From assembly GCA_043812975.1 (NCBI GenBank), contig JBDRLP010000021.1, forward strand, positions 1-34,070: a stretch of 34,070 nucleotides of DNA, read 5' to 3'. This stretch comes from Candidatus Iainarchaeum sp. Its GTDB lineage: Archaea > Iainarchaeota > Iainarchaeia > Iainarchaeales > Iainarchaeaceae. The position numbers and the translations under genes are program-made. Positions 9,001-31,121 of this stretch are shown piece after piece (within the stretch, counting starts at the first letter, position 1; the number at the start of each line of letters is the position of its first letter). The notes under the pieces were generated by a model. That model ran no database searches. It was not told the DNA's origin and was given only the letters and a program-made list of their open reading frames with translations.

Positions 9001-9186
9001 AGCATGGAAAGAGAAAATTATTCGAAAGAAGAAGCTGCAGAATCACTCAAAAAACTATGGCCAAATGTTATAGTAAAAAAAACAGAAGCCTTACACAAAC
9101 CAGTCTGGCATATCGTGCTTTCAGAAGACGCAAAAGAAAGAATTGTTCTTATTGATGCGGTTAATGGAAAAATAATACAGCAGTAA
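6085..9186 (+). CDS. HerA/FtsK-like (DUF87) ATPase with long acidic N-terminus and C-terminal winged-helix region
   Basis: Walker A GARGSGKS, VVDPIG, Walker B LFIDEAH, GRRPGLSLVFATQQP; D/E-rich residues approx. 1-190 and approx. 750-790. Confidence 0.85.
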   Translation: MAKEEKEHKTTENEETRPLGDERVEETIVSDDLDLFDEVLGDKKTSDLKEIVDKNDPVEDEKEDEEEESEDEESGKEDEEDSDKEEDEKQDEDDVDEKEIKKVEETPEDEEKTEDEESEDEEESEEDSDEEESEKDDTIDADAKEKDETEEIEEDDEETEDEESEDEESDEGNEESEDDTVDADSQEPEELKALVKEDIKNTILEKADTAAEGANAIPLGEKLEFLEDKENNSVFIGRKSNIFKKFGSEAALQIGKVQETEHEYKDVYLDSLNPHVVFVCGARGSGKSYVLGVIAEELAEKNKNVGMIVVDPIGVFWSMKYPNKEEKEVEKLIKWGLEPQGLKNMKVFIPEGVKKEVPKSTYDSGFSIQPSLLTGEDWALTFGIDRFSVSGLLLEKVLKKVEKGYKQKETNKKIPGKRKNFSINDLTTCLETDAELNSREKGYKPDSIRAITSRFEAAKTWGIFDEKGTPLGKLSREGQMTVLDTSFLDDNVTALVIGILARRLLAARKISTRKEAANQFKELNMEELIELEIPPTWLFIDEAHTLIPSGNEVTAATSGLIEYVKQGRRPGLSLVFATQQPSAISTKVLSQLDIIITHKLIFDDDIKAVFKRTPTIIPKRYRNPNFIKTLPVGVAVTGDRREETSRAFVMGIRPRKSQHEGRDAETTGFSETLDEKQVEKIAVGMISKDLEREESIDIEKVQLAVETLNNKYHANIDFKKILRKLEEKGFVVGETSVMVKGYVQENAVDELTEDDKDEEEENEEENDEEDKKEDDEEEEGDEEEEVEAVELLSLPKRISEENARKIVERLRKKRLFGLLGNADRIEEIQLKYFPMWRVKFDVMTRGKEFISRECFINSISGEFVHFKDGNFIESKGLRNLSELNPEEVLVMSGLQKKELLIEEIMAQTELEEAKTRRILQKLMEKSLVEKITDKKTGKTIYWVKEKIDLPPNEKHEMLSSIASLPFVKAEALSMERENYSKEEAAESLKKLWPNVIVKKTEALHKPVWHIVLSEDAKERIVLIDAVNGKIIQQ

Positions 9187-9249
9187 GTTCTATCGAGCAC
9201 AATCGAAGATAGAACGCCGCCCAAAGGGCGTCCACCGACGCAACGGCGG
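9187..9249 (+). repeat. Stop-codon-anchored palindromic element, copy A
   Basis: GTTCTATC-GAGCACAATCGAA-GATAGAAC; CGCCC-AAA-GGGCG; CCACCG-ACGCAA-CGGCGG; flanked by a duplicated gene end (9163-9186 and 9251-9274). Confidence 0.9.
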
Positions 9250-9274
9250 TAATGGAAAAATAATTTCACAATAA

Positions 9275-9868
9275 TTATTTTCTGAATTCATTAGGAAGAA
9301 CTTTTGAATCTTTTTCTAAAATAGCACCGCAATTTATAGTTGAATTTACCCCTGTTTTTACATTATCAAAAAACAAGGCACCTAATTTTCTTCTACCCGA
9401 ATCAACTTTATTTCCATTAAGATTTACTTTCACTGATTTATTATCATGGCGAAGATTAGCAATTTTAGTTCCAGCACCAAGATTACAGTTCCTTCCAATA
9501 AGAGAATCTCCAACATAGGAAAAGTGAGGTATTTTAGAATCATTTAGAATAATAGAGTTCTTTATCTCAGAAGTGCCTACAAAGCAATTATCCGCTATAA
9601 TTGTTCCTTTTCTTAAATAAGCATTAGGGCCTATTATGCAGTTTTTCCCCACAAAAACATTACCTTCAACCCTGGACCCTGCCTTTACAACAGACCCCTT
9701 TCCAAGAGAAAGATTGCCGTCAACAACCACCCCGTTTTCTACATAACCTTCTGTTTTTGGTTCTAATTTCTGCATTTCTTCTTCAGCAAGTTCAATAATT
9801 TTCCAGAATTCAAAAGGAACATTTTTTTCAACAAGGCTTTCAGCTTCCTTAATCAGATTTTCAATCAT
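9275..9868 (-). CDS. Stand-alone hexapeptide-repeat acetyltransferase (GlmU C-terminal-like; probable glucosamine-1-phosphate N-acetyltransferase)
   Basis: IGPNAYLR, EIKNS, PHFSYVGDS, NLGAGTKIANLRHD and RKLGA motifs; last gene of the glmS-glmM operon with a 4-nt overlap. Confidence 0.85.
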   Translation of the reverse strand: MIENLIKEAESLVEKNVPFEFWKIIELAEEEMQKLEPKTEGYVENGVVVDGNLSLGKGSVVKAGSRVEGNVFVGKNCIIGPNAYLRKGTIIADNCFVGTSEIKNSIILNDSKIPHFSYVGDSLIGRNCNLGAGTKIANLRHDNKSVKVNLNGNKVDSGRRKLGALFFDNVKTGVNSTINCGAILEKDSKVLPNEFRK

Positions 9869-11277
9869 TCTCCAATCTCCTTTGAAATAGCATTAGCAAC
9901 AGAATCGGAAATTTTTTTTATTTCTGCCTCGCTTTTTCCCTCAACCATTACTCTTGCTATATTTTCTGTTCCACTATAACGAACAATAATCCTTCCATCA
10001 GAACCTAAATCTTTTTCAGCATTTTTAATTTTTTCATTTACTTCAGACATCTGTGAAAAATCCTTTTTTTCTTTCACTTTAACATTCACTAATACCTGCG
10101 GAAAAAATTCTAACGGAGAAACTAATTCTGAAAGTTTTTTTTCAGTAACCTTCATTAATCTCATTAACTGAAGTGCAGAAATTATTCCATCCCCAGTTGT
10201 TGTATAATCTCCAAAAACAAGGTGGCCGGATTGTTCTCCTCCAAAGTTGAAATTATTTTTTCTCATTTCCTCGATAACATAACGGTCACCAACTTTTACT
10301 GAAACGTATTTTATTCCGTTTTTTTCAAGAAACTTATGCAAACCAAGATTGCTCATAACAGTTATAACGCAAGTATCGTTTACAAGCTTATTTCTTTTCT
10401 TAAGTTCAACTGCAGCAAGAGCAAGAATAGCATCCCCATGAACTACTTCCCCTAGTTCATTACATACAATTATTCTATCAGCATCACCATCTAATGCAAT
10501 TCCTAAATCTGCTTTGTGTTCTTTTACTGCTTCACTCATTTTTTCCGGGAAAAGCGCACCGCACCCATCATTAATGTTATTTCCATCAGGCTTATCGAAC
10601 AAAGATATTACTTCAGCCCCTAATTCTGAAAAAATCTTTGGAGCAACACTATAACCTGCTCCGTTAGCACAATCCAAAACCAGTTTCAGTCCTGAAAGAG
10701 AAATATTTTTTACAGTGGATTTTGCAAACTCAATATAACGACCCTGCGCTTCATCAACACGAACAGCTTTTCCAACAGCCCCGTCAGGATTTTTTATTTC
10801 TTCATCAGACAAAACAATTTTTTCTATTTTATGCTCTATTTCATCACTTAACTTGTAGCCTTCAGAATCAAAAATTTTTATTCCATTATCTTCCGCAGGA
10901 TTATGAGATGCACTTAGAACTATTCCTGCATCAGCACTAAGAGAAGTTGTTAATTTTGCAATCGCAGGCGTAGGCATAGGCCCCACAAGGAAAACATCAA
11001 CACCCATAGAAACTATTCCTGCAGTTAAAGCAGTTTCTAACATATAACCTGAAAGTCTTGTGTCCTTACCAATAACAATACTGTGCTTTCCATTGTTCCT
11101 GAAAATACTTGCAACAGCCTTTCCAATTCTCAAAGCAACCTCTGGAGTCATAGGGTATTCATTTGCTTTTCCCCTGATTCCATCAGTTCCGAATAACTTT
11201 CTTTCGCCGCAGGCCCGCGGCGATAGGGCGCCCGCCTTCGGCAGGGCTTGCTCGCTATTGCTCGCAGTATTGCTCAT
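9865..11277 (-). CDS. glmM: Phosphoglucosamine mutase
   Basis: LFGTDGIRG, SASHNP, DGDADR, GGEQSGH and RYSGTE motifs. Confidence 0.96.
   Translation of the reverse strand: MSNTASNSEQALPKAGALSPRACGERKLFGTDGIRGKANEYPMTPEVALRIGKAVASIFRNNGKHSIVIGKDTRLSGYMLETALTAGIVSMGVDVFLVGPMPTPAIAKLTTSLSADAGIVLSASHNPAEDNGIKIFDSEGYKLSDEIEHKIEKIVLSDEEIKNPDGAVGKAVRVDEAQGRYIEFAKSTVKNISLSGLKLVLDCANGAGYSVAPKIFSELGAEVISLFDKPDGNNINDGCGALFPEKMSEAVKEHKADLGIALDGDADRIIVCNELGEVVHGDAILALAAVELKKRNKLVNDTCVITVMSNLGLHKFLEKNGIKYVSVKVGDRYVIEEMRKNNFNFGGEQSGHLVFGDYTTTGDGIISALQLMRLMKVTEKKLSELVSPLEFFPQVLVNVKVKEKKDFSQMSEVNEKIKNAEKDLGSDGRIIVRYSGTENIARVMVEGKSEAEIKKISDSVANAISKEIGE
11204..11267 (-). repeat. In-frame GC-rich palindromic insertion in the glmM 5' end
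   Basis: GCGAGCAATAGCGAGC; CCTGCC-GAA-GGCGGG; TCGCCGCGG-GC-CTGCGGCGA, within an AT-rich gene. Confidence 0.75.
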
Positions 11278-13019
11278 TTTACAGTCACCGATTTTGCTAA
11301 ATTTCTAGGCTTATCAGGGTCAAAACCCTTCTTTAACGCCAGATAATAGGATAATAGCTGTATCGGTATAACAAGGGAAATTATATTCGCATTACCGCAT
11401 TCAGGAACAATAATACTAAAATCAAATTCAGAATGCTCTTTTGAATCAACACCAATTATTAGAGCACCTCTGCTTTTCATTTCAATCGCATTACTAATAA
11501 TCTCCGCACGGGTTTCTGGAGTACAAAGTACAATTGCAGGAGTTCCTTCCTCAATCAATGCAATTGTGCCGTGTTTTAATTCTGCTCCTGCAAAACCTTC
11601 AGCGTGAATATAACTAACTTCTTTAATTTTCAAAGCAGATTCTAAAGCAGCAGGAAAAGCCTCGCTCCTCCCAATAACAAAAATGTTTTTTTTGTCCACA
11701 AGTTTTTCTGCAAGTGATTCCATTTTTTCTTTGGAAAAAGAAATTGTAGATTCGATTTTAGAAGCAGTTTCTTTTACTAATTGCTTTGCCTCATCATTTT
11801 TACCAACAACAGAATAAGCTAAAAGAAGAAGAATTGCAAGCTGGCTTGTGTAACTTTTTGTTGAAAGAACACAAATTTCAGGTCCGGCATTCATCAAAAG
11901 AGAAACATCAGAAGTGCGCATTAAAGAAGAATCCATTACATTAACAATTGAAGCAATCTTTGCTCCTTTTTTCTTTGCGGTTTTTACTGCATCCAAAAGA
12001 TCAGCTGTTTCTCCGCTCTGGCTTAAAGCAACAACAAGTGTTTTTTCATTCAGAAAATTTTCAACTCTTGAAAATTCTGAAGCAAGAATAGTTTCAACAT
12101 GCAAACCAGCACTGCTGAAAAAATAAGAACCCGCAATGCAGGCGTGATAAGAAGTGCCACAACCTATCAAAAATACTTTTTCAGAACTTTTAATCAAACT
12201 TGTTAGTTCATCAAGGTTTTCTTTTGGCTGTTCGACTGCTAATTCCAGTGCTTTTGGCTGTTCAAAAATTTCCTTTAACATGAAGTGAGGGTAAGAACCT
12301 TTTTGAGCCTGCTCAAAATCCCAGGTAAGTTCTTTAGTTTCAAAATTAATTTCTTTTCCGGAAGCAACATCAAAAACTTTTGGCTCTGCGGAAATTACTG
12401 ACATTTCATTATCATTCAGAAAGTAAACTTTTTTTGTTTCGCCAATAAAAGCAGTTGCATCAGAAGCAACAAAAAAAGAATCGCCAAAACCAAGAACTAA
12501 AGGAGAACCATTTCTTGCACACACTAATTTATTTTCTCCGAGATGAATTGCGACAATAGCAAAACTTCCTTCAATTTCCAAAAGAGATTTTCTTACTGCT
12601 TCTTCAAAAGAATTTTCCGATTTCATTTTTTCCTGAATCAAATTTACAATAACTTCAGAATCAGTATCTGATTTGAAAGTATAATCTTTTTCTATTAATG
12701 ATTTTTTTAACTGAGCAAAGTTCTCAACAATTCCATTATGAACTAAAGCAATTTTACCATCCATTGAAAGATGCGGATGCGCATTCCTTTCAGAAACATT
12801 ACCATGGGTTGCCCAGCGGGGGTGACCTATAGCAATACCAGAATCTGAGTATAAAGGATCAGAATTGCTAATGTGACCTACTTTTTTTTCTACTGAAAAT
12901 TCACCGGAATTCGGGTAAGCTATTCCCCAGGAATCATAACCCCTGTATTCAAGAGCTTTTAAACCATAAAATGCTTTCTCAGTTGCTTTGCTTCCTTTAA
13001 TCCCAATAATGCCACACAT
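11274..13019 (-). CDS. glmS: Glutamine-fructose-6-phosphate transaminase
   Basis: MCGIIG, EYRGYDS, RWATHG, HNG, SQSGETAD, KEVSYIHAEG, PRNLAKSVTV. Confidence 0.97.
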   Translation of the reverse strand: MCGIIGIKGSKATEKAFYGLKALEYRGYDSWGIAYPNSGEFSVEKKVGHISNSDPLYSDSGIAIGHPRWATHGNVSERNAHPHLSMDGKIALVHNGIVENFAQLKKSLIEKDYTFKSDTDSEVIVNLIQEKMKSENSFEEAVRKSLLEIEGSFAIVAIHLGENKLVCARNGSPLVLGFGDSFFVASDATAFIGETKKVYFLNDNEMSVISAEPKVFDVASGKEINFETKELTWDFEQAQKGSYPHFMLKEIFEQPKALELAVEQPKENLDELTSLIKSSEKVFLIGCGTSYHACIAGSYFFSSAGLHVETILASEFSRVENFLNEKTLVVALSQSGETADLLDAVKTAKKKGAKIASIVNVMDSSLMRTSDVSLLMNAGPEICVLSTKSYTSQLAILLLLAYSVVGKNDEAKQLVKETASKIESTISFSKEKMESLAEKLVDKKNIFVIGRSEAFPAALESALKIKEVSYIHAEGFAGAELKHGTIALIEEGTPAIVLCTPETRAEIISNAIEMKSRGALIIGVDSKEHSEFDFSIIVPECGNANIISLVIPIQLLSYYLALKKGFDPDKPRNLAKSVTVK

Positions 13020-13113
13020 GACATTAAAACGAGCATAAAAAAGCTTTTAAAGGAAAAAGATACTATTATTATAAAAATACTTATACTAGTATTAAGTTAT
13101 TAATAGTGGTTTT

Positions 13114-14064: not shown

Positions 14065-14114
14065 TACTGAATAAAAACCAACAATTAAATACTTCAATAA
14101 TCAACTTTCAGAGT

Positions 14115-14393
14115 ATGATAAAGCTTAGTAATTTCATTGGTCAACCGTGCCAGTCAAGGATAGCTTTCGAGTTTTTGCCAAAAAAAGAACACAAACTTAA
14201 TTTGGAAACAACCGCAAGAAAACTAAGAGAAAACGAAGTATTCATTGAACTTGAAAGTCCTTACTTAATAATGCTGAAAATTACAGGCACTAATGTTTCA
14301 CTTTTTAAAAGCGGAAAAATAATCGTAAAATCCACAAACGAAAAAAAAGAAGCAAAAAAAATCGCGGAAAAACTAATTTCTAAGATGCAGTAA
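14115..14393 (+). CDS. Small protein resembling a single TBP-like domain
   Basis: VSLFKSGKIIV followed by helix EAKKIAEKL; ATG 14115 preferred over the 14061 start. Confidence 0.6.
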   Translation: MIKLSNFIGQPCQSRIAFEFLPKKEHKLNLETTARKLRENEVFIELESPYLIMLKITGTNVSLFKSGKIIVKSTNEKKEAKKIAEKLISKMQ

Positions 14394-14458: not shown

Positions 14459-14567
14459 AGAAGCAAGAAAAATTGCGGAAAAACTGATTTCTAAAATGCA
14501 GTAGTTGAAGGTAATAATTTAATTCTAAAAACTGATTTCAAAAATTAGATTCCAAAAAAGTGTAAAA

Positions 14568-14589: not shown

Positions 14590-14620
14590 CAAAACATATT
14601 GAGAGTTATTAAATTTACAC

Positions 14621-17427: not shown

Positions 17428-18198
17428 ATGCCAAAAAAAGTTGAAAAGAAAGAGGACGAAGTCGAAAAGAAAATCGACTTTACTAAAGAAAAGATAAATG
17501 ACAACAAAACAGGTATTGCTGAAATTAGGGATGAAATAACAGATACAGGAAAAGACGTAGATGAAATAAAAGAAGAAGTTATTGATGCAGGAAAAGACGT
17601 AGACGAGATCAAAAAAGAGGTTATTGACACAGGAAAGGATATTGATGATATTAAAGAAGAAGTAGAGGATACGGGAAAAGACGTAGACGAAATAAAAGAA
17701 GAAGTACTTGAAACAGGAAAAGACGTAGATGAAATAAAAGAAGAAGTTGTAGAGATAACAAAAAGGCAAAATACTATACTGAAAAAAATTTCAGCACAAT
17801 TTCTTCCTTCCGAGTTTAACTTTAACGACGTTGCACAGCAAATTGTAGGAGCAATAATCCTGTCAAGTCCGCTTGCAGTAACAGAAGAAGTATGGAATCT
17901 TGCAAAAGAACTTGACACTGCAAGAATACTAGTAATAATCGGAATAACATTATTGTTTGATATTTTATTGATTTATTACACGGCTTACAGAAAAGAAAAG
18001 GAACGAAAAATAATCAATCTGATTCCTGCAAGATTGTTCTCAATGATACTTATTTCTTACTTAACCGCAACAACAATTCTGTACGTTTTCGGAGTAATAG
18101 GACTACACATCACCGACATGGACTGGGCATTAAGACTCATAGTATTCGTAGGGTTATTTGCTAATGTAGGTGCTGGAACTGCTGATATAATCAAATAA
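17428..18198 (+). CDS. DUF2391-like membrane protein with N-terminal 14-aa repeats
   Basis: DVAQQIVGA...PLAVTEEVW motif followed by TM helices. Confidence 0.75.
   Translation: MPKKVEKKEDEVEKKIDFTKEKINDNKTGIAEIRDEITDTGKDVDEIKEEVIDAGKDVDEIKKEVIDTGKDIDDIKEEVEDTGKDVDEIKEEVLETGKDVDEIKEEVVEITKRQNTILKKISAQFLPSEFNFNDVAQQIVGAIILSSPLAVTEEVWNLAKELDTARILVIIGITLLFDILLIYYTAYRKEKERKIINLIPARLFSMILISYLTATTILYVFGVIGLHITDMDWALRLIVFVGLFANVGAGTADIIK
17542..17751 (+). repeat. Five 42-bp coding tandem repeats
   Basis: (D/E)(T/A)GKD(V/I)D(E/D)IK(E/K)EVx five times. Confidence 0.9.
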
Positions 18199-18292
18199 GT
18201 ACTATCGAGTCCCGCCTGACAGGCGTGACGAAGATAGTACGCGCACCACACAGCAACCGAAGGGAGTACCCGCAAGGGTGCCGCAACTGTGT
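18199..18292 (+). repeat. Stop-codon-anchored palindromic element, copy C
   Basis: GTACTATC-GAGTCCCGCCTGACAGGCGTGACGAA-GATAGTAC; GCGCACC; ACACAG...CGCAA-CTGTGT with internal hairpins; duplicated gene end 18157-18198 and 18294-18335. Confidence 0.92.
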
Positions 18293-18340
18293 TTTTGCTA
18301 ATGTAGGTGCTGGAACTGCTGATATAATTAAGTGAAAAAA

Positions 18341-19150
18341 TCATTTTTTGAATTTTTTTATTTCATTAAAAGGACCGGAAAGAGTTACCAAATTCCTTGA
18401 AAATTCAGCTTTTATGGTTGAAGAAAAAACAGTGATTAAACCCAAAGGAATATGGTTATTTTTTTCAACATAAGTGAAAAGTTTCTTTAAATCAGATTTT
18501 TCCATCTGAAAAGTATTGTTTCTTGATTTAGAATTAAATCTTGCAGCTAAAGCAACAAGAGTTTTTTCATTCTGGCACTCAACAGTAATTTCTTTATCAG
18601 AAAAAAGCGAACCTAAAAGCTTTGCAGAATTCTTATTCAAAGGTTTTGCAAAAGAATCATTAAAATCAAGTTCTTTCAAAGAATTAATTTGCTCATCCAG
18701 AACTCCGGAAATATAATTCAAATGTTTTACTTTTTTCTTTAATTGCTGTTCAACCTGCTCGAGGTTTGAAATTGAAAAATCAAGCGAACTCTTAGAAGTT
18801 TTTAACAAATCATTATCATCGCGTCCTCTCTGAATCATGACCTGTAGTTTACTCACAATAAAGTCAACATCATTCTCAGGTTTTTTTTGTTTCAATGAAT
18901 CATTCAACCCAATAACAAGTTTGTTTTTTATTTCAGAATAAATTTCAGATTTGCCTTTTTCCAAAAGATAAAATCGGTTGCCTTTTCTTGAAAGAAAACC
19001 AAAAGTAGTTAAGTCCTTAAGCGAACGCGAAAGAGCAGCTCTCGCAGAATTAATGTTAGAATAAGAAGACGCAAATTTATTGAGAAGAGAATTATAATCA
19101 ATTCCCTCATTCTGCTTTACAATTAAAAGTATAGTATTTTTAGTACTCAT
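18341..19150 (-). CDS. Hypothetical protein with N-terminal winged helix and coiled coil
   Basis: SARAALSRSLKDLTTFGFLSRKGNRFYL wHTH-like pattern. Confidence 0.65.
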   Translation of the reverse strand: MSTKNTILLIVKQNEGIDYNSLLNKFASSYSNINSARAALSRSLKDLTTFGFLSRKGNRFYLLEKGKSEIYSEIKNKLVIGLNDSLKQKKPENDVDFIVSKLQVMIQRGRDDNDLLKTSKSSLDFSISNLEQVEQQLKKKVKHLNYISGVLDEQINSLKELDFNDSFAKPLNKNSAKLLGSLFSDKEITVECQNEKTLVALAARFNSKSRNNTFQMEKSDLKKLFTYVEKNNHIPLGLITVFSSTIKAEFSRNLVTLSGPFNEIKKFKK

Positions 19151-20558: not shown

Positions 20559-23500
20559 TTGACAAAAATAACACAGTTAAAACTAAAAAATTTCAAGTCT
20601 TTTAAAAAAGCAGAGATTCCTTTCGCAAGAGGATTTACTGCAATAGCAGGCGCAAACGCATCAGGGAAATGTGTAATTGGAGAAACAATGGTTGCTTTAC
20701 CCAATGGCGAACAGAAGAAAATCAGTGAAATTGTAAAGGAAAAACTTGAAAACACAACTGCCAAAAAATTTTTAGAAGATGGAGTTATAGGATTTAATCA
20801 GGATTCAGATTTCAAGGTAATGAGCCTGAACTTGAACACACTTAAGCTTGAAGAAAGAACAGTGCAGGCAGTTGTCAAAAGAACAGCCCCTAAAAAACTC
20901 CTGAAAATAAGAACACGGAACGGAAGAGAAATAACAACCACAGATTACCACCCATTCTTTAGTGTCGGCAAAAAAGGATTATACTCACTCAAAGCAAGCG
21001 AATTAAAAGAAAAACAATTCATTGCAACCCCTCGAAATCTCAGTGAAAGAAAAAAAGAGCTTTTCTTTTGTGAACTTCTGGAAGAAATTGAACCAAAAAA
21101 CAATTTATACGCCCCGTTCAACCAAAGGTATCTAGAAATAATCCAAAATTACATTAAGGCAACAGGCTATACAACAAAAGAAACAGCAAAAGAAATGGAC
21201 ATTCCGGAAAACGCGATAAAAGGACTTAAGGACAAGCAGGCAATAAATTTGGCGCATCTCATAAAAATTTTGAAGACAATTGGTTTTGAAAATGAACAAA
21301 TAACAGAATTAGTACCAATAGTCAAGGGAAAAACTTCCAAAAAAGAAATTAAAATGATTTGGAAAAACTCACAAGAATTTTCAAGATTACTTGGATATTT
21401 TTTTGCAGAAGGGAGCTTTTCTGGGAAAAATCCGAGATTAGCCAATGAATCAACAGAAATAATAGAAGACATAAAAAATATTTGCGAAAAATTAACCGGT
21501 AAAAAAGTTTTCATTAAAAAATACAAAGAAAATTCTTTTGATTTAATAATCAATTCACATGCATTCTATCAATTGCTGTCAAAATTCGGGTTGGAAGAAA
21601 AATCAGGGGCACGAGGGAAAAAAATCAAGGAAATATTCTTCAAACATTCCGACAAAGAAGAACTAGCTGCTTTTTTGGACGGTTATCTCTCAGGAGACGG
21701 GTATATATCCAAAAGTACGGTGAGTTCAGCGACAGCTAGCGAAGAACTCGCCAAAGGAATAGAAAGAATATACCTTGGATTGGGTATAGTTCCATCAACA
21801 AGAAAAACCAATAAAAAAATAAAGAAAACAGGATTCGAAGGAAACTACTTTGAAGTAACTATAAGCGGAGCCACAAACATAAGCGAATTTACAAAAAAAG
21901 TCAGTTTAACACACATACAAAAAATGCTGAAAATTAGAAGACTCTGTAAAAAAAGAAAACACACAAATACAGATCTCATACCGCACATCAACAATATTAT
22001 AAAAGAAGCCTGCATCGAAAACCAAATTAAATACGCAAGAAAAAAAAACAAAAACATTAAACTGAAATCATACACTGATTTTGCCTGCCACCCAAGCAGA
22101 CATGGTTTGCAGGAAGTGCTCCAACAGGAATTCAAAGGAAAACAATCAGAAAAAACAGTTGTTTTGCATGCACTCGCGGATTCCCAAGTTTTCTGGGACC
22201 AGATAACAAGCATAAAAGAAGTAACAAAAAAACCAAGACATGTTTATGATTTAACAGTTGAAGAAACACACAACTTTGTTGCAAATAACATAATTATACA
22301 CAACAGCAACATATTAGATGCATTGCTTTTTGCCATAGGAATAACCTCGCTGAAAATGCTCAGAGCATCAAGACTTACTGAACTTGTAAATCACGATTCC
22401 AAAGACGGTTATGCGAAAGTAGAACTTACTCTTGAAGATGATAATGGAAAAGAAATTCAAGTAACGAGAATTATTGATAAACAAGGAAAGAGCATTTACA
22501 AATTAGATGGAAAAAGAAAAACCCTGAACGAAATACAATCTTTACTTCTTGAAATAGGAATAAACCCTAACGGACACAACATTGTTGTACAGGGAGACAT
22601 TACAAGAATTACTGAAATGAATGCAAAGCAAAGAAAGCGCATTATTGAGGAAGTTGCGGGTTTACAGGAGTTTGAAGAAAAGAAAGAAGAAGCAATAAAA
22701 AAACTGGAAAAGGTTGAGCAAAAAGTAAAGGACGCAACTCTTGTTCTTAATGAAAGAGAAATTTACCTACAGCAGCTTGAACAGGAAAGGGGAAACGCAT
22801 TAAAGTATAATGAATTACAGGAAGAAGTGAAAAGATCCAAAGCAACAATTCTTTCAGAGGAAATTAAAATCATTAAAAAAGAACTAGGCGGAGCAAAAAA
22901 ACAATTAGATGAAATGCAAAAAGAAATCGGAGATAAGAGAAAGGAAAGAGATAAGCTTCAGGAAGAGGAAAGAGAATTAGAAACAAAAGTAGAAGAAGCA
23001 ACAAAAAAACTTATAGCTTCCAGCGAAAAAACTTATTCTGGTTTAGGAAAAGAAGTCGAACAGAAAAAAGGACATCTTGTGCTGCTTAATGAGCGTTTTA
23101 ATTCAAGGAATTATATAATTGAAGAAAAATCTGCAAGGAAAGAAAAACTGAAAGAAGAAGAAAAAGAAACAAAAAAAATAAAGGAAGAAAAAGAAGAACA
23201 ACTAAAACAGGCATCTTATTCACTTGAAAAAACCAATGAACAACTAAAAAGCATCCAGCAGCACATTAACTCAAAGAGCCCTAAGCTAGAGGAAAAAAAA
23301 GAAGGAACTCAGAGCAGTGAGGAAATTTATTACAAGTTAGGAAAAGAAATCGAGGAATTAAAAGAAAAACTGCACGAAGCCAGAATTTCCAAAAACAACC
23401 ATGAGAAAGAAATCAATTCTGCAAAACATAGCCTTCAGGAACTAGAAACGCGAAAAAGCAAACTGGAAATAAAAATAAGAGAAAAAGAAGAATTAGAGAA

Positions 23501-25181
23501 AAAAATCATTCACCTTGAAGGCAAAGCCCCAAATGAAAGATTAGAAGCAAAGGAAAAAGAACTTGAAAAACTAATGAATGAACTTCACGTTTCAAAAGGA
23601 AAACATGAAAGCATTCATGAAGCAATTGAAACTTTACAGCAAACAAAATCCGAGTGTCCTATATGCGATAAACCTCTTGAAAAAAATACTAAAGAAACTA
23701 TTACAGGCAAAAAGCGGAAGGAAATAGGGGAACTTAAAACAAAAATCGCAGAACTTACCGCGCAAAGGGAAAAGATTGAAGAAGAAAAGAAAAAAATTAA
23801 GATTGATGAAAAGGAACTGGCAGAACTCAAATACTCTATAAAATCATTCACAGGTTCGGACGAGGAATTTGCAAGTATAAAAGAAAATATAACTAAGCTG
23901 AAAGAAACTGCTTCATCCAAAGAACATGAAAAGTACAGCAAACAAGAAAAGGAACTAGAAAACAAAATAGACGGGTTGCAAATCAGAAGAAGCGAGGTTG
24001 AAAAGAAAATTAATGATTTTAAGCAGAGTGAAGCCAACATCGAAATGAACCAGCTTCTACATAAAATGCAGGATTTGAATGAACAAAAAAACGAAAAAGG
24101 CAGGTTTGTAACAGAGTTAAGCACTGAAATTGAAAAGGTTCTGAAGCACAGGCTTGAAAGCATTAAGGAAGAGGAAAAAATAATAGAAAAGGAACTTAAC
24201 GAAACTAAAAAAGGCATTGCTGAAATCAGGGAAGAAAAAGAAAAGGAAGAAAAGGAACTTGAAAAAATGGAAGCTGAACTTGAAAAATCAAGCAAAGCAA
24301 ACAAATTACTCGAAGAAGAAAAAGACAGATTAACAACAAAAATAAAGAACATTTCAGAAAAAAGAGATATACTTGGAAGGAAAATTGAAAATCAGGAAAA
24401 GGAAGTTAATGAAATTAATTTGAACCAATCCAAAAATGAAGTGAGGATTGTTGATCTTGAAGAAGAATTCAAGGATTATTCTGCTGTTAAAGTTCTTTCA
24501 GAATTTGTTCTTAATGATTTGAAAACAAGAATTCCGGAAATAGAAAAGGAAGTTGAAAAACTTGGAGCTATTAATATGAAGGCTCTGGAAAACTTTGATG
24601 CTTACAAAAAAGAAGTTGATGATGTAAGAGAAAAAGCAACTAAGCTTGATGAAGAAAGGAAAGCAGTAATAGAAATGATTGATAAAATAGAAGTAAAAAA
24701 ACTGAATGTGTTTATGGAATGTTTTAATCACGTTTCTAAAAAATTCTCAGAACTTTATTACAATTTCTTTGAAGGTGAAGGTCACCTTGACTTAACAGAT
24801 AAAGAAAGCCCGCTGGAAGGAGGTCTGCTTATACAGGCAAAGTACAAGGAAGATGTAATGAAAAGTATTGATGCAATGAGTGGAGGAGAAAAGAGTTTAA
24901 CTGCAATGGCATTCCTGTTCGCAATCCAGAGCTTTGAACCTGCACCATTTTACATTTTTGATGAGGTTGATGCTGCACTTGACAAGGATAATTCTATTAA
25001 AGTAGGTAAAATGATTAAAGGCCAGAGTGGGTATAGTCAGTTTATTTCAATCAGCCACAATGACTCAGTAATTAATCAGGCAGACCAAATTATTGGAGTT
25101 GCTTTGAATAAACAAAAAAGTTCTATAATTGGGTTGAAATTGAAGAAAGAAACTCCTTCTTCCACGCATGCTGAGGCATGA
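20559..25181 (+). CDS. smc: SMC-family ATPase (intein-containing, approx. 995 aa mature) with central CXXC and no recognisable hinge
   Basis: NFKSF, Walker A GANASGK/S split by intein, Q-loop VVQGDI, LGAINMKALE, MSGGEKS signature, PAPFYIFDEVDAALD; TTG start. Confidence 0.85.
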   Translation: MTKITQLKLKNFKSFKKAEIPFARGFTAIAGANASGKCVIGETMVALPNGEQKKISEIVKEKLENTTAKKFLEDGVIGFNQDSDFKVMSLNLNTLKLEERTVQAVVKRTAPKKLLKIRTRNGREITTTDYHPFFSVGKKGLYSLKASELKEKQFIATPRNLSERKKELFFCELLEEIEPKNNLYAPFNQRYLEIIQNYIKATGYTTKETAKEMDIPENAIKGLKDKQAINLAHLIKILKTIGFENEQITELVPIVKGKTSKKEIKMIWKNSQEFSRLLGYFFAEGSFSGKNPRLANESTEIIEDIKNICEKLTGKKVFIKKYKENSFDLIINSHAFYQLLSKFGLEEKSGARGKKIKEIFFKHSDKEELAAFLDGYLSGDGYISKSTVSSATASEELAKGIERIYLGLGIVPSTRKTNKKIKKTGFEGNYFEVTISGATNISEFTKKVSLTHIQKMLKIRRLCKKRKHTNTDLIPHINNIIKEACIENQIKYARKKNKNIKLKSYTDFACHPSRHGLQEVLQQEFKGKQSEKTVVLHALADSQVFWDQITSIKEVTKKPRHVYDLTVEETHNFVANNIIIHNSNILDALLFAIGITSLKMLRASRLTELVNHDSKDGYAKVELTLEDDNGKEIQVTRIIDKQGKSIYKLDGKRKTLNEIQSLLLEIGINPNGHNIVVQGDITRITEMNAKQRKRIIEEVAGLQEFEEKKEEAIKKLEKVEQKVKDATLVLNEREIYLQQLEQERGNALKYNELQEEVKRSKATILSEEIKIIKKELGGAKKQLDEMQKEIGDKRKERDKLQEEERELETKVEEATKKLIASSEKTYSGLGKEVEQKKGHLVLLNERFNSRNYIIEEKSARKEKLKEEEKETKKIKEEKEEQLKQASYSLEKTNEQLKSIQQHINSKSPKLEEKKEGTQSSEEIYYKLGKEIEELKEKLHEARISKNNHEKEINSAKHSLQELETRKSKLEIKIREKEELEKKIIHLEGKAPNERLEAKEKELEKLMNELHVSKGKHESIHEAIETLQQTKSECPICDKPLEKNTKETITGKKRKEIGELKTKIAELTAQREKIEEEKKKIKIDEKELAELKYSIKSFTGSDEEFASIKENITKLKETASSKEHEKYSKQEKELENKIDGLQIRRSEVEKKINDFKQSEANIEMNQLLHKMQDLNEQKNEKGRFVTELSTEIEKVLKHRLESIKEEEKIIEKELNETKKGIAEIREEKEKEEKELEKMEAELEKSSKANKLLEEEKDRLTTKIKNISEKRDILGRKIENQEKEVNEINLNQSKNEVRIVDLEEEFKDYSAVKVLSEFVLNDLKTRIPEIEKEVEKLGAINMKALENFDAYKKEVDDVREKATKLDEERKAVIEMIDKIEVKKLNVFMECFNHVSKKFSELYYNFFEGEGHLDLTDKESPLEGGLLIQAKYKEDVMKSIDAMSGGEKSLTAMAFLFAIQSFEPAPFYIFDEVDAALDKDNSIKVGKMIKGQSGYSQFISISHNDSVINQADQIIGVALNKQKSSIIGLKLKKETPSSTHAEA
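20670..22304 (+). mobile_element. 545-aa intein with LAGLIDADG homing endonuclease in the SMC Walker A motif
   Basis: Starts CVIGET; block B TTDYHPFF; LAGLIDADG-like LLGYFFAEGSF and FLDGYLSGDGYI; ends VYDLTVEETHNFVANNIIIHN followed by +1 Ser. Confidence 0.96.
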
Positions 25182-25664: not shown

Positions 25665-25871
25665 ATGCCAAAGAGAATAAAGCAAAAGAAACTTACAAGA
25701 ATAGAACCAGTAGTAGAAATACAATACAAAGGTGGCACTAAAATGAGATTAAATAAACAAGATGCAGAACGTTTTATAGACAATATGGATGCCAAGGTCA
25801 ATAGAGGACGTACATTAACTACTGAAGAAAAAGGAATGATTACAAAATTGCAAAGGTTTCTCCGAAGTTAA
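25665..25871 (+). CDS. Small basic hypothetical protein
   Basis: 68-aa ORF with TTATATA box approx. 25 nt upstream, suggesting a leaderless transcript. Confidence 0.55.
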   Translation: MPKRIKQKKLTRIEPVVEIQYKGGTKMRLNKQDAERFIDNMDAKVNRGRTLTTEEKGMITKLQRFLRS

Positions 25872-25990
25872 ACTAGATAAAATTACATCCTGGTATGGGT
25901 TCCAATAAATTGAACAGAACCAGCCCAAAACAACTTTTATATACCTTTTGTATTTTATTCAATAGTTCTAATTTGGTAAAGTGAGTCTAT

Positions 25991-27982
25991 TTGGTATTGG
26001 AAATTATTATTGTAACAGGAATTATTGGTTTGGCATTCGCAGGTTATAACACAATTAGCCTTGAGAAGAAAGGAACCGGAACAGACAAAATGAGAGAAAT
26101 CTCAGGTTACATCAGAGAAGGAGCTTTTGCTTATCTGAAAAAGCAGTACTCAATTCTTGCGGTTTTTATTGTAATAATGACAATAGCACTTGTTTTGCTT
26201 ATCAGTCCTTTAACAGCAATTGCTTACGTTTTTGGAGCAGTAAGCAGTATTATAGCCGGCTTTTTAGGAATGAACTCAGCAACAAAAGCTAATGTAAGAA
26301 CCGCACATGCAGCCACTAAAAGCTTACAGGAAGCACTAGCAGTAGGATTCCAATCAGGATCAATTCTTAGTATGAGCACAGCAGGATTAGGATTAATCGG
26401 AATAGCATTAATGTACTTCTTATTTAACGACATGACAGTAGTAGCAGGATTTGCACTAGGAGCAAGTTCAGTAGCATTATTTGCAAGAGTTGGCGGAGGC
26501 ATTTACACTAAAGCAGCTGACGTCGGAGCAGATTTAGTTGGAAAGATTGAAGCAGGCATTCCGGAAGATGACCCAAGAAACCCAGCAACAATCGCAGACA
26601 ATGTTGGAGACAATGTTGGAGATGTTGCAGGAATGGGAGCAGACTTATTCGAAAGTTATGTTGGAAGTATTATTGCAGCAATGGCAATCGGAGTATTTAT
26701 TTTTGAAGGAACCGCAATATTTTTTCCGTTAATAATTTCAGCAATAGGACTCATTTCCTCAATAATAGGTTCATTTTTTGTAAAAGCAAAAGATGAAGCA
26801 GGAATCCACTCTGCATTAAACAACGGTTTGCTTGTAGCATCAGTAATTGTTCTTATTGGTTCTTATTTCGCAACAACAGCACTTGGAATTTTACCAGCAA
26901 CCTATGAAATAGGCGGAATCACTTATGAAGCACTCGGAATTTTTATTGCAATAATAACAGGAGTAGTAGCAGGAATTGGAATAGGAAAAATTACAGAATA
27001 CTACACTTCAGCAGATTACAGTCCGGTAAAGAAACTTGCTAAAGCAGCAGAAAGCGGAGTTGCAACAAATATTATTGAAGGACTTAGTTTAGGTTACGGT
27101 TCAACTGTAATCCCGATTCTTATTATTTCCGGAGCAACATTAATTTCTTTCCAGTTTGCAGGATTATACGGAATAGCAATCGCGGCAGTAGGAATGCTTT
27201 CCACCCTTGGGATTTCACTGGCAATTGATGCTTACGGACCTGTATCAGACAATGCAGGAGGCATTGCTGAGATGGCTGGAATGGGACCAAAAATAAGAAA
27301 AAGAACTGATGCTTTGGATTCAGCAGGAAACACTACTGCTGCTATTGGAAAAGGATTTGCAATAGGATCTGCAGCACTAACTGCATTAGCACTATTTGCT
27401 GCATTTGCACAGGCATTAAACTTGGAAGTTATTAACCTTATCAACCCACTAACAATTGTAGGTTTGTTCCTTGGATCAACAATAGCATTTGTATTCTCAG
27501 CACTCACAATGAATGCTGTTGGAAAAACAGCATTTGCAATGATTGAAGAAGTAAGGAGACAGTTCAAAGAAATAAAGGGCCTGATGGAAGGAAAAGCTAA
27601 GGCTGATTATGCTAAATGTGTTGAAATTTCCACACAAGGAGCATTAAGAGAAATGATTCTGCCTGGAGTAATTGCAATTCTTGCACCATTCATAGTAGGA
27701 ATTGTACTAGGACCAGAAGCACTAGGGGGGTTATTAGCAGGAGCACTTATCACAGGAGTAGGACTAGCTATTTCAATGGCTAACTCAGGCGGAGCATGGG
27801 ATAATGCCAAAAAGTACATTGAAGCAGGTGCTTTTGGAGGCAAAGGAAGTGAGGCTCACAAAGCAGCAGTAGTAGGAGACACAATAGGGGATCCTTATAA
27901 GGACACCACAGGGCCCTCTTTGAATATTCTAATTAAACTTATGACTATTGTGTCATTGATCTTTGTTCCTTTATTTCTTTAG
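25991..27982 (+). CDS. hppA: Membrane ion-translocating pyrophosphatase, K+-dependent type, probably Na+-pumping
   Basis: [35 protein letters not shown] and GGAWDNAKK motifs; GNTTAA (Ala) K+-dependence signature. Confidence 0.95.
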
Positions 27983-28056
27983 ATTTTTTAATAAATTTTC
28001 TTCTATTTGATTCCTCAAGAATAAAATAAAAAATTAATTACAACAATCTAATTTTC

Positions 28057-30582
28057 TTATATTTTCTTTAATTTTTTAGTAACTGGTTTTTTAGTAACTT
28101 TTTTAATTTTTGTTAATTTTTTTGGTTTAACAACCGGCTTTGTAACGTTCTTTACAATAGGTTTGAGAACTAGTTTTGGTTTCACTGGTTTCTTAAATGA
28201 CCTGACTGGTTTTACATTAACTAATGATTCTTTTCCGACAATCACTGGTAGATTTGATTTATTTGCAATCGAATCAAGATTAATGTTCTTCAGCAGTACT
28301 TTTTGCTTTGAAAGAGCACCCAGTTCTGCTTCAAGTTTTTCTTTCAAATCAATAAGCTTTGATAAGTATTCTCTTGATTTTTGTTTAAACTCAACTTCAG
28401 AAATCACTTTAGTGTTTAAGTATTTCTTGAGATCATGTAACTTTTCAGTATAAGAATTAATTTCAGTGGAATAATCATCAATAGCAATTACATGCATTGC
28501 CTTTTCTTTTCTTTCGGCTTCTAAAAAGCTTAGTTCCTGCATATATTTATCTTTCAGGTTAGCATGCTTTTCAGCATTAATTTCGCCTTTCAAAAGTTTT
28601 ATGTCAACATCCTTAATGAGTCTCTTTAAGTGAAGGCTTTCCTTTTCAATAGAAAACTTTCTGTGCTTGTGCGAAGCAATAACACCAATCAAAACTAACA
28701 ATAATACAAGTGAAAATACGAGAGAAAACAATAATATTCCTACTAACAAAAAGTCATCTTCCACAGGAACAGGATCAGAAACAGTGCTTACAGGAACTGC
28801 AGTTCCAACAATACTTTGTTCTAAATAATAAGAATTAACCTTGCTTGAAGTATCAAAAATTTCCTCGGCAAGATAAGCAAGACTCACTCCGCTTTTCAGA
28901 TTGTTTGTAGCACTTATTGAAAAGCCCTGTTCTGAGTAATACTCAGCAGAAGCTAAGAAAAACTTGGCATGATCAAGGAATAAAACAGCCCAGCCTACAG
29001 AAACATTAGAATCAGCTATTTCTTTTTCAACCTCAGAGATCTTTTCCTGAAGCATTTTCTTTAATTCATCCTGAGTTTTATCTTTAGAATCTATTTCAGA
29101 TTCTACTAATGCTTTTGCAGAAGCCGCGTCAAACAAAGAAGCTTCATACCAGCCGAATAATTTCTCGTTTTTAGAAGCATTAACTCGCCTTGTAATATCG
29201 TCTCTTTCTCCATCTTCTTCCAATACACTTAAACCATTTTCTGCATCAATTAAAATAGAATCACTTGAATCCTTAAATTCCTCAGAACGTGTCACTAAAC
29301 CATTTGATTCTATTGATAAATTATAAAAGTCCTTGGAAACATCAAGCCATGCAACAGCAAAAGCATAATCCTGAAGCCTCGCAAGAGTATTCTGTAACCT
29401 ATCTTCCTCAGAACCATCAATTACAAGAGTTTGTTCACTTCTGATCTTTTCAAGAGTTATTCTCGCATAAGTAAATCTTTGCTGAGCAGAAGCAAACCAT
29501 TCAGCACCTTCTTTAGGAATGTTTCCTGATAAATCATTTTCAAAATTGTTCAGTTCTCTTTGTAATTCAGCAAGGCGTAAATCCAAAGCAGTTGAGTTTT
29601 CCTCCAAAAGAGAAGGGTTGTTTGAAACTTCCTTAACTATAATCGCATTAACTCTTGCAAGGAAAGCAAAGTTTGCAGCAGAATACATATAATTCTGTTC
29701 GTTCAGGATTTCGGCTCTTGATACGGTTTGTTCAGAATCGTTAAGAACCTCAAGCAGGAAAGAAATTACTTCCGGGTCCTCTAAAAGAGTTGAAGAAAGT
29801 CCATTCCTTGCTTCAGAGGTTATTTGTCTTGTTTCATCAATATAATTGCTTGTTAAAATTTTGAAAGAACCCAAATGAGAAGGCAACTGTACTTTATCTG
29901 GAATAAAATCAGGAATAGGATTTGAAGCAGTTGTATTAACATCAATGTCTCCAACAGCCGTAAAAGCTAAACCTATTGCTTCTTCAATATTGCTAACTTC
30001 AACAACTTTAATCCCCCAAGTTTCAGGAGCATACTCTAAAAGATTTACACTTCTGACTCCTTCTTCAAGTTTTATTGTCTGAATTGCTTCTCCTCTTGGA
30101 ATTAAAAATAGTTTTTTTCCTGTGCTTGCTGCTTCTTTTGTTTTTTCAAAAACACCACCAACAGGACCAATTGTACCATCCTCCTTAATTGTCCCCGTAA
30201 TACTTACTGTGTCTGGAAGTTTTTTGTCAAGGAGCATTGAAACAGTAAGCAAAGTCATTGCGGCTCCGGCACTTGGACCTTCAACAACAGAAGCTACACT
30301 TGAAATTGTGAATTTATAATCATACTTATCAGTATTTGAGTAAAAGTTTTTGGCAACTTTAATAGCGGTTCGTTCAGCATTCTGGGTTGTTGTTCCAACT
30401 AACGGAGTTACTGCTGACCAAATTTTTCCTGTTCCTGGTTCAATTTCAAGAGTCAAATCAGCTACTAAACCTTCCCCCTTAGTAGTTACTGCATAAATAT
30501 CCAGTGAATCTTTTTCAATAACTGCCCATGAAACTGAGGCAAACAAAACCAGAAATAAGGCTGCTAAAAAGAATTTTCTCAA
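28057..30582 (-). CDS. Secreted or membrane-anchored Lon-like (S16) serine protease lacking an AAA domain
   Basis: Signal peptide; EGPSAG catalytic Ser; TGTI...GPVGGVFEK Lys; C-terminal TM helix and Lys-rich tail. Confidence 0.85.
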   Translation of the reverse strand: MRKFFLAALFLVLFASVSWAVIEKDSLDIYAVTTKGEGLVADLTLEIEPGTGKIWSAVTPLVGTTTQNAERTAIKVAKNFYSNTDKYDYKFTISSVASVVEGPSAGAAMTLLTVSMLLDKKLPDTVSITGTIKEDGTIGPVGGVFEKTKEAASTGKKLFLIPRGEAIQTIKLEEGVRSVNLLEYAPETWGIKVVEVSNIEEAIGLAFTAVGDIDVNTTASNPIPDFIPDKVQLPSHLGSFKILTSNYIDETRQITSEARNGLSSTLLEDPEVISFLLEVLNDSEQTVSRAEILNEQNYMYSAANFAFLARVNAIIVKEVSNNPSLLEENSTALDLRLAELQRELNNFENDLSGNIPKEGAEWFASAQQRFTYARITLEKIRSEQTLVIDGSEEDRLQNTLARLQDYAFAVAWLDVSKDFYNLSIESNGLVTRSEEFKDSSDSILIDAENGLSVLEEDGERDDITRRVNASKNEKLFGWYEASLFDAASAKALVESEIDSKDKTQDELKKMLQEKISEVEKEIADSNVSVGWAVLFLDHAKFFLASAEYYSEQGFSISATNNLKSGVSLAYLAEEIFDTSSKVNSYYLEQSIVGTAVPVSTVSDPVPVEDDFLLVGILLFSLVFSLVLLLVLIGVIASHKHRKFSIEKESLHLKRLIKDVDIKLLKGEINAEKHANLKDKYMQELSFLEAERKEKAMHVIAIDDYSTEINSYTEKLHDLKKYLNTKVISEVEFKQKSREYLSKLIDLKEKLEAELGALSKQKVLLKNINLDSIANKSNLPVIVGKESLVNVKPVRSFKKPVKPKLVLKPIVKNVTKPVVKPKKLTKIKKVTKKPVTKKLKKI

Positions 30583-30705
30583 ACAAAAAACCTCTAAACT
30601 TAAGCTTTAAGAATTAGTAATTTAAGATTTATATAGGTTTGTTTGAATACTCAAGTATTAATGAAAATACCTAAAAATAATGACCTTTAGCCAAAATAAA
30701 AAGAA

Positions 30706-30735
30706 TTAGAAAAAGGAGCAGATTCCGAGGAATCT
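30706..30735 (-). terminator. Probable terminator of the ribosomal protein operon
   Basis: AGATTCC-TC-GGAATCT inverted repeat at the rpl12 stop followed by CTCCTTTTTCT. Confidence 0.45.
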
Positions 30736-31033
30736 ACCCGAATAAGCTTCCTAATCCTTCTGCAGCTTCTTCTTCGCTTTTTCCTTTATCTTCTTCAACT
30801 TCTTCTTTTGCTGGTGCTTCTCCGCCTGCTGCCGGTGCTGCTGCAACTGGTGCTGCAACTGCTGCTTTCTCGATAGCTTCTTCTATATTAACGTCTTTTA
30901 ATGAAGCAACCAAAGCTTTAACTCTGGAGTCATCAACTTTGACGCCTGTAGCTGTGAGAACTTTCTTTACGGCATCCTCTGTTATTTCTTTCTTTGCAGA
31001 GTGAAGTAGCATTGCGCTGTATACATATTCCAT
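30734..31033 (-). CDS. rpl12: 50S ribosomal protein L12 (archaeal P1)
   Basis: [11 protein letters not shown]...[22 protein letters not shown]. Confidence 0.97.
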
Positions 31034-31069
31034 ATCTTCACCTCGTAAACTTAACTAAAATGTTAAGCG

Positions 31070-31121
31070 TAACAGTTGCGGCTGTTAGGTACGCGTCCAC
31101 TTCGCTTTTGCTCAGTAGGAC
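31070..31121 (-). repeat. Stop-codon-anchored palindromic element, copy D
   Basis: GTCCTACT-GAGCAAAAGCGA-AGTGGAC; GCGTACC; TAACAG-CCGCAA-CTGTTA; begins in the rpl10 TAG. Confidence 0.8.

Follow-up and report, generated by a model that had tools for sequence, protein, structure and literature searches.

The 34,070-nt contig analyzed here (JBDRLP010000021.1 of the Candidatus Iainarchaeum sp. assembly GCA_043812975.1; hereafter the window) carries four members, A to D, of a family of short GC-rich hairpin elements located at the ends of unrelated genes. At three of them the terminus of the host gene is present twice, once as its functional end and once directly behind the element. In the source genome and its relatives the duplicated termini, where they differ, do so mostly at synonymous positions, the copy within the gene is usually the one that has changed relative to empty sites in sister genomes, and the same gene termini are occupied in several lineages. 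The explanation we favor, with about even confidence, is that the hairpin element together with a recoded patch of gene terminus spreads by homology-dependent integration. In the following, G000 designates the source genome, of which the whole window is contig C21, and other G, L and C labels designate relatives, loci and contigs.

G000 is a 68-contig bin of 1.24 Mb with 35% GC that is 94% complete and has archaeal gene content, including the genes for ribosomal proteins L1, L10/P0 and L12/P1, ABCE1 and tRNA genes with long introns. Each of the four elements in the window begins at or inside the stop codon of a co-oriented open reading frame (ORF): A, B and C read TAA followed directly by GT, while in D the G of the stop codon TAG is also the first G of the element's GTCC. 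The host genes encode a HerA-like ATPase (A), a 110-aa protein without family assignment (B), a DUF2391 membrane protein (C) and ribosomal protein L10/P0 (D). The elements and the gene tails bordering them are listed below, with the covariance model score and the z score of the sense-strand RNA fold for each element.

9163-9186, plus strand: in-gene (replacement) tail of gene A, 8 codons, AAT GGA AAA ATA ATA CAG CAG TAA
9187-9249, plus strand: element A, 57.5 bits, z -3.5; hairpin 1, small CGCCC/GGGCG hairpin, final stem
9251-9274, plus strand: displaced native tail of gene A, AAT GGA AAA ATA ATT TCA CAA TAA
14349-14393, plus strand: in-gene (replacement) tail of gene B, 15 codons including TAA
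14394-14458, plus strand: element B, 55.7 bits, z -4.2
14460-14504, plus strand: displaced native tail of gene B, 15 codons including TAG
18157-18198, plus strand: in-gene tail of gene C, 14 codons including TAA
18199-18292, plus strand: element C, 36.3 bits, z -4.2; nested GC module ACCGAAGGGAGTACCCGCAAGGGTGCC within the loop of the final stem
18294-18335, plus strand: displaced tail copy of gene C, 14 codons including TGA
31070-31121, minus strand: element D, 70.2 bits, z -2.1; between the L10/P0 and L12/P1 ribosomal protein genes

An initial annotation made from the DNA letters had described duplicated tails of 8, 15 and 14 codons at A, B and C, and all three were found; D exhibited no flank duplication (flank repeat score of 7). 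The two copies of gene A differ in three codons (two synonymous changes and Gln/Ser), those of gene B by three synonymous changes, one Lys/Arg and one stop change, and those of gene C by two synonymous changes and a stop change, all in the last three codons. Our recount of these 11 differing codons (seven synonymous, two stop/stop, one Lys/Arg and one Gln/Ser) agrees with the earlier figure of nine synonymous codons, stop-to-stop changes included, and one Lys/Arg. The displaced tails of A and C had both been placed directly against a convergent neighbor, which is correct for A (abutting ORF 9275-9868), while that of C ends 5 nt ahead of ORF 18341-19150. A 157-nt contig (X2) from a public run that may represent the source sample matches positions 18157-18313 with zero differences and covers the first tail copy, element C and the start of the second copy. 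Rfam gave no matches in the window at gathering scores, and around element A only a chance-level snoRNA match (E = 2.6) was observed.

That the four elements form one structured family, as previously suggested, is borne out by a covariance model (R1) built from 19 copies, which replaced an early regular-expression catalogue that was too permissive. Counted at E<=0.01, this model detects 46 copies in G000 and recovers the four in the window with exactly the coordinates originally assigned to them. In the alignment, hairpin 1 follows the pattern GTnnnAYCGAG...CGARG...nnnAC, with arms GTnnnAYC and GRTnnnAC around GAG...CGAR; it is followed by a GC linker, in which a small CGCCC-NNN-GGGCG hairpin may be present or absent, and the 3' terminus of the element is a 6-bp stem with the loop NCGMAA. 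When 41 copies, drawn from G000 and relatives, were aligned, 98.3% of cells were paired and double changes occurred in all 11 pairs, in an alignment that was fitted to the model and thus favors it; none of 500 shuffles reached the observed values, and slid controls were 25-56% paired. For all four elements of the window the antisense strand folds more weakly than the sense strand (z of -2.7, -2.4, -1.7 and -1.25 for A to D). The element is oriented and lacks inverted termini, and its 3' end is precise while the 5' side varies, with an extra module (GCGAACGAAGTGAGCC-like) in some copies and an AT-rich filler separating the target copy from hairpin 1 in many. Its core measures 43-94 nt and holds no ORF, and no nuclease gene is adjacent. 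Pairwise comparison of 39 copies in G000, which omitted the seven weakest or partial ones of the 46, revealed none that were identical (median best identity 0.82, range 0.62-0.96). The variable loop of hairpin 1 was also considered as a complement of the target and rejected: although CACAAT of element A does occur in its target, this sequence and CACAAG are common loop variants across the family, and the match was judged coincidental.

Sampling 151 genomes across the phylum with the covariance model placed the family in 39 of them (E<=0.001), including 16 of the 19 genomes from the same taxonomic family, and up to 18 copies per genome were present in another family. A scan of metagenomes with an 18-nt pattern matched at least 120 stretches, 80 of which were retrieved, 13 of these with a GC content <= 0.45; about three true family members (L089, L094 and L117) were among the matches listed, the rest being mainly chance. 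Viral contigs yielded 82 pattern matches but no convincing member among the 80 retrieved, the top model score of 28.9 bits being little above that of the 3' hairpin alone.

Location at stop codons, although accurate for the window, turned out to be too narrow a description of the family. Seven of the 46 copies in G000 start at or in the stop codon itself, including all four in the window; 15 start between -1 and +8 nt from the stop of a co-oriented ORF (>=70 codons), and 23 within 40 nt of one. Other copies occupy gene starts, lie antisense to genes, adjoin tRNA 3' ends or immediately precede tRNA genes.

A direct repeat of the flanks (score >=11) was detected for 22 of the 46 copies, compared to 3.7% of 272 mismatched flank pairs, and in 20 of these 22 the distal copy begins no more than 3 nt from the 3' end of the element. 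GC-rich islands, scanned independently, reached a score >=12 in 21 of 261 cases, with 2.3 expected. Repeat length varies from about 10 to 48 nt, and since many duplications are perfect (e.g. 42, 47, 20 and 18 nt), only a subset of copies can be called recoded. Without exception, the duplicated segment is the terminus of whichever gene lies 5' of the element. For co-oriented genes it consists of the last codons and the stop (A, B, C, contig C1:49722 and TruD on contig C44), for antisense genes of the ribosome-binding site, the start and the first codons (ABCE1 on C27, a V4R-like gene on C41, and C65), and on contig C23 of a tRNA 3' end; where the stop and start of two genes overlap, the repeat leaves both genes intact. 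Translation of the displaced tails was considered and rejected: at A, B, C, contig C1 and TruD the frames are open through the element but lack a credible start, and only in B and contig C1 is the frame continuous with the upstream gene. At two further loci, L053 (G000 C41:42304-42469) and L054 (G003), the displaced start heads a short frame that crosses the insert and ends at a TAA overlapping the real start codon (TTGCTTAA) in both, though the inserts differ.

The duplicated segments at 11 loci in G000 contain 24 synonymous and 5 non-synonymous differences among sense codons, in line with the proposal that the in-gene copy is a coding-equivalent replacement; an additional four stop codons differ stop-to-stop. 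The five non-synonymous differences are Q/S in A, K/R in B, N/T in TruD, and V/K and K/S on contig C52, while the TruD tail has five synonymous differences, the ABCE1 start five of five (including the first-position changes AGA/CGA and CTG/TTG) and the V4R-like start three of three (including TCT/AGT). Relatives contribute 17 synonymous differences and one non-synonymous difference as well as one start codon lost in a displaced copy, bringing the overall count to 41 of 48 synonymous. Random single changes in these codons would be synonymous at a fraction of 0.22-0.29. The probability of at least 24 of 29 is 3e-9 at 0.29 and still 3e-5 at 0.45, our own generous figure for a constrained copy paired with a freely decaying one; with the codons of the relatives also tested at 0.29, P = 7e-16. 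The copies differ at 0.29-0.63 of their codons, compared to a synonymous difference of 0.24-0.33 between species of the genus, and the untranslated copy shows almost no change of the non-synonymous type. With a divergence at or above the between-species level, the two copies look, from their codons, like alleles that each evolved under selection and were recently brought together.

Empty sites in sister genomes support the earlier suggestion that the distal copy is the displaced original end, with gene C as the exception. Of 25 differences that could be decided with an outgroup, 22 are derived in the in-gene copy, which is the reverse of what is expected for an untranslated fossil beside a constrained gene. 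In gene B, all four differing sense codons have the distal spelling in G001 and G004, and the ortholog site in G001 is empty. The empty site of gene A in G003 ends ATT TCG CAA TAA, resembling the distal copy, and the flank after the distal copy (ttattttct.aattcattagg) is common to G001; all three in-gene differences are derived relative to G003 and G001. Of the TruD changes, four are derived in the in-gene tail and one in the distal tail, with a sixth undecided, while all three in the V4R-like gene are derived in the functional copy. The displaced ABCE1 start of G000, together with the adjoining 37 nt of upstream sequence, exhibits a single difference from the empty site in G003. The cleanest case is ABCE1 in G011, which belongs to another genus: its displaced copy is identical over 40 of 40 nt to the native start of the sister genome G007, and the 300 nt upstream are 96% identical between the two. 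The functional ABCE1 of G011, on the other hand, has five synonymous changes relative to G007 in codons 2, 3, 4, 7 and 8, followed by only three in the next approximately 50 codons (P = 1.5e-5 with the local rate, 9e-3 with the gene-wide rate). Neutral decay of a plain target-site duplication, already doubted in the initial annotation, does not fit, because both the synonymous bias and the empty-site polarity contradict it.

The same sites are used repeatedly. An antisense element with a duplicated start is present at the ABCE1 start in G000, G001, G004, G006, G011 and G014, which represent four genera, with right-hand boundaries that differ (after codon 6, 6.3, 7, 8 or 13.3); the site is empty in 12 other genomes that were read (G002, G003, G005, G007, G008, G009, G010, G013, G015, G018, G019 and G022). 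Together the six filled genomes display 16 synonymous and no non-synonymous differences between copies, which are identical in G001 and G014. A gene tail ending in ELEKIEF is filled in both G000 and G003 by different subfamily members with different repeat lengths, and the gene start encoding MIIPHAKPG is filled in G000 and G001 by elements whose internal hairpins covary. Similarly, a junction in G005 and a metagenome contig 95% identical to it share the same repeat but hold different elements.

Several other arrangements were seen at target sites. The duplicated V4R-gene start that is occupied by the GC-rich element in G000 is filled in G003 by an AT-rich repeat described below. On the minus strand of G000 C1:19213-19361, two different members are inserted in tandem together with three copies of the target ATGGAGGCCAAATAATGAT; this target contains both the stop of one gene and the start of the following one. 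In G007, a lone hairpin-1-like piece (TTACTATCGAGCGAAGCGAAGATAGCAA, L009) without duplication comes just after the stop of the gene B ortholog and may represent a remnant of an insertion at this site in a different genus.

According to the explanation favored here, the mobile unit would be the hairpin element plus a short patch on its 5' side that serves as a working copy of the interrupted gene's terminus, comprising the last codons and stop for a co-oriented gene or the ribosome-binding site, start and first codons for an antisense gene. After integration the patch would run the gene, and the native terminus, no longer translated, would directly follow the element's precise 3' end. Such a unit would spread between related lineages into the same gene, presumably with the help of a trans-acting enzyme, in the manner of homing with co-conversion of a short flank. 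Recombination in the conserved part of the terminus would join the patch side, leaving identity far from the element's 5' junction and differences beside it, and the 3' end of the element would connect to native sequence. Every transfer into a naive allele would leave a fresh native copy; arriving from another allele lineage, the patch would carry foreign synonymous differences while the displaced copy would be the recipient's own, and perfect duplications would represent young events or transfers between near-identical genomes. The lack of identical copies alongside many perfect duplications fits arrival from outside better than bursts within the genome, and the DNA exchange that would sustain homing is plausible because the lineage is rich in homing elements (18 LAGLIDADG_3 matches in G000). 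Tracts larger than the patch were looked for and rejected: sequence identity between G000 and G003 is about 87% to either side of the TruD insertion, ABCE1 shows no elevated tract relative to G001, and no kilobase-scale import is visible.

A number of observations weigh against this explanation. While a genome-wide check of the kind proposed at the outset bore out duplicated flanks and a synonymous bias, 24 of the 46 copies have no duplication detectable by the flank test. The polarity of gene C is ambiguous, its nearest relative, G005, ending ATC AAA TAA like the in-gene copy. In the more distant pairs, G000 with G001 or G003, divergence of the in-gene copy does not clearly exceed that of the remainder of the gene, so that confinement of the divergence to the patch rests mainly on the pair G011/G007. 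No donor allele with the in-gene spelling was found, and the ABCE1 patches of G000 and G011 are mutually nearest (22 of 24 nt), a similarity that is marginal by our own estimate (P of about 0.06). In G006 the ABCE1 patch keeps the lineage-specific residues Pro2 and Ile4 while four of the first five codons differ at the third position, a pattern that is awkward for a distant donor. Non-synonymous differences lie near the junction at two loci, C52 (V/K and K/S) and A (Q/S). No empty allele or joint skipping the element was seen in the short, low-depth contigs of four public runs.

The search for a mobilizing enzyme in G000 adds to these points, since no RVT_1, Y1_Tnp or HNH was found in the 94% complete genome. 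It has one GIY-YIG gene without a link to the element and one TnpB-like gene with a 3' flank that lacks a family-like element. PF07282 was found in only four of the 17 element-carrying genomes of the taxonomic family, and this domain was not found in the element-rich genomes G003, G015, G011, G007, G121 and G135. The 18 LAGLIDADG_3 matches are mostly inteins inside very long open frames, one of which corrects the earlier statement about the window: it was said to encode no transposase, HUH nuclease, integrase or reverse transcriptase, yet a LAGLIDADG homing-endonuclease domain is present as an intein (21372-21902) in the SMC-type ORF 20559-25181 on the plus strand, with 14 further loci in G000. 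Free-standing LAGLIDADG genes were rejected as partners, as the three that exist (about 320-340 aa; contigs C6, C46 and C36) adjoin tRNA genes without an element. None of the four tyrosine recombinase genes in G000 is adjacent to an element. Three of them are paralogous (about 410-430 aa):

C26:5703-6209, tyrosine recombinase gene
C26:14403-14900, tyrosine recombinase gene
C20:22255-22797, tyrosine recombinase gene

Two of these three adjoin tRNA-Tyr and tRNA-Thr, and for this reason the paralogs are probably integrated elements at tRNA genes.

A bolder version of the homing explanation, which we judge unlikely, is that these are miniature non-autonomous counterparts of homing elements, 50-90 nt long and each tied to one gene terminus through its recoded patch, that are moved across DPANN-type species and genera by trans-acting machinery recognizing the hairpins. 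Such machinery would read the hairpins, as RNA or single-stranded DNA, and not the target, and the copies in tRNA 5' leaders may supply a processed mobile intermediate.

Among the alternatives, a small non-autonomous insertion (of the type of a MITE, a miniature transposable element with inverted repeats, or retro-like) with a long variable target-site duplication, after which the in-gene copy changes in place, is the most probable, although we doubt that it is correct. Change in place could result from local hypermutation beside the hairpin or from selection, for example for rescue of translation or mRNA folding or for lower repeat identity. It would readily accommodate the many perfect duplications and the precise 3' end with a variable, filler-bearing 5' end that resembles end-primed copying, as well as differences that crowd at the 5' junction of the element (A, C, G006 and G011), lineage-specific residues in both copies of G006, and an Arg codon that is altered in opposite directions in G000 and G011, each time away from the respective native copy. 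The untranslated copy, however, should gather more changes, yet 22 of the 25 are in the constrained one, and the five changes within eight codons in G011 (four of them transversions) against three in the next approximately 50 would require very strong local acceleration combined with perfect filtering. The tails of B and TruD offer no obvious reason for adaptive synonymous change. Neither a transposase or reverse transcriptase nor near-identical source copies were found in G000. The precise 3' end and the variable 5' end and duplication would fit a non-LTR or target-primed retroelement; no RVT_1 was found, and the recoding is unaccounted for by this route.

RNA-guided homing, a variant of the guided insertion contemplated in the initial annotation, appears very improbable. 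Here the element would be the scaffold of a guide RNA and the displaced copy the guide for TnpB- or Cas12-like cutting, from which the recoded in-gene copy escapes. Agreement with this scenario is found in the precise 3' end abutting native sequence, the better folding of the sense strand, the unchanged displaced copy next to a recoded in-gene copy, the single TnpB-like gene of G000, and the five of 29 tRNA genes with an element as would-be leader, which RNase P would release at that 3' end. The stretch adjacent to the element, where a Cas12 or TnpB seed is expected, nevertheless stays identical, with the first mismatch at positions 4 to 43 following no rule, and perfect duplicates would be self-targets. 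No complementarity or guide logic fits, the 3' flank of tnpB carries no element, and the distribution of PF07282 does not follow that of the element. An artefact of assembly through strain mixing in the metagenome bin, suggested by its 68 contigs and by copies that differ like alleles of two strains, is hardly credible, as the join between the element's 3' end and the second copy is impossible by switching between collinear strain paths, the same layout is seen in at least eight independently assembled genomes and in metagenome contigs, and contig X2 spans the element C junctions.

Among known systems, homing elements that bring a replacement gene end are the closest kind. The mORFs of fungal mitochondria make gene hybrids in Allomyces atp6 and in Glomus atp6, atp9, cox2 and nad3, with an inserted C-terminus that is foreign and expressed and a native C*-terminus identical to close relatives (PMC3630166). 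The family described here would resemble them in that the C-terminal codons of the insert become the expressed end and the native, relative-like end is displaced downstream, in the largely synonymous differences, and in the use of the same genes in different lineages. It differs from the mORFs in having ORF-less elements of 43-94 nt of hairpins and patches of 6-15 codons on archaeal chromosomes, and in its additional use of gene starts (antisense), tRNA ends and dozens of unrelated genes with no endonuclease found. WHO elements of yeast replace the 3' end of FBA1 at each integration (PMC7282813); homing into a gene with replacement of its 3' end is the shared trait, whereas WHO elements encode a nuclease and have one target gene, and the elements described here have many targets and no ORF and are known from sequence alone. 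A supplied functional terminus with displacement of the native one and allele-like synonymous differences were thus found here, and an encoded endonuclease was not.

The resemblance to gene-restoring integration pointed out at the beginning is apt, with mORFs and WHO elements being nearer. Islands at tRNA genes and the phages e14 and 21 at icd, which restore the target gene, are kilobase-sized, encode an integrase and have a defined att core. There, as here, a replacement 3' end is carried in and the old end displaced; the present cargo is shorter than 100 nt, with no adjacent integrase. Correia, RUP, REP/REPIN and Rickettsia palindromic elements are short, structured, multi-copy and host-tolerated and occur at gene boundaries. 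Such small repeats and MITEs share the short, structured, multi-copy nature and gene-boundary location, while the elements in G000 are oriented, have no terminal inverted repeats, exhibit duplications of 10-48 nt that are often recoded and lack near-identical copies. A partner transposase or RAYT was not found in G000, and a REP-like assignment also fails for want of any Y1/RAYT-type gene found in that genome. Unlike the PATE and TnpB omega-RNA of IS200/IS605, the elements are absent from the 3' flank of the single tnpB and do not co-occur with the nuclease. Our full-text literature searches returned no description of such ORF-less elements in archaea.

Additional features in G000 involve tRNA genes. 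In front of five of the 29 tRNA genes (Leu-gag, Ile-tat, Glu-ttc, Trp and Ser-gct), a co-oriented element ends 0-1 nt before position +1. These copies have the 5' module and no target duplication, and a TATA-like box is located upstream in contig C42. An element in this position would be the tRNA 5' leader, freed with the 3' end common to all copies. The tRNA-linked copies are:

C12:19233-19286
C20:34906-34962
C42:1347-1407
C52, about 226-281
C25:51392-51443

Many tRNA genes in G000 are also flanked by an AT-rich palindromic repeat, TTTTTCTTTCTTT..AAAGAAAGAAAAAG, often followed by CTGTACCAAAAAGAAAGAA. Its sites include:

C23:17880-17920
contigs C7, C17, C26, C27, C12, C25 and C51
outside G000, L054 (G003) and L018 (G006)

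A GC-rich GCGACCRAAGGGAGTCCCGCAGGGG-like module lies inside lysine-rich coding tails, apparently in frame, and is also nested in the final loop of element C. Its sites in G000 include:

C2:1464
C11:9533
C34:17186
C45:6933
C57:7995
C64:9333
C1:6717
C9, about 400-430

To our knowledge, homing elements that replace gene ends have been seen only as kilobase cassettes encoding their own nuclease. The family described here would be a version of less than 100 nt without an ORF, located at dozens of essential genes (ABCE1, TruD, ribosomal proteins and tRNAs) in genomes of about 1 Mb. If the explanation favored here is true, host or shared machinery is able to place short structured DNA at selected gene ends while leaving the gene unharmed, and related ultra-small archaea exchange DNA often enough to sustain such elements; should machinery that recognizes the hairpins exist, it would constitute a new site-specific, gene-preserving route of insertion without an element-encoded protein. 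For annotation, the family is a caution against dismissing duplicated gene ends and short relay reading frames as errors of assembly, and the comparison of patch and native copy would provide a marker for gene flow between uncultured lineages.

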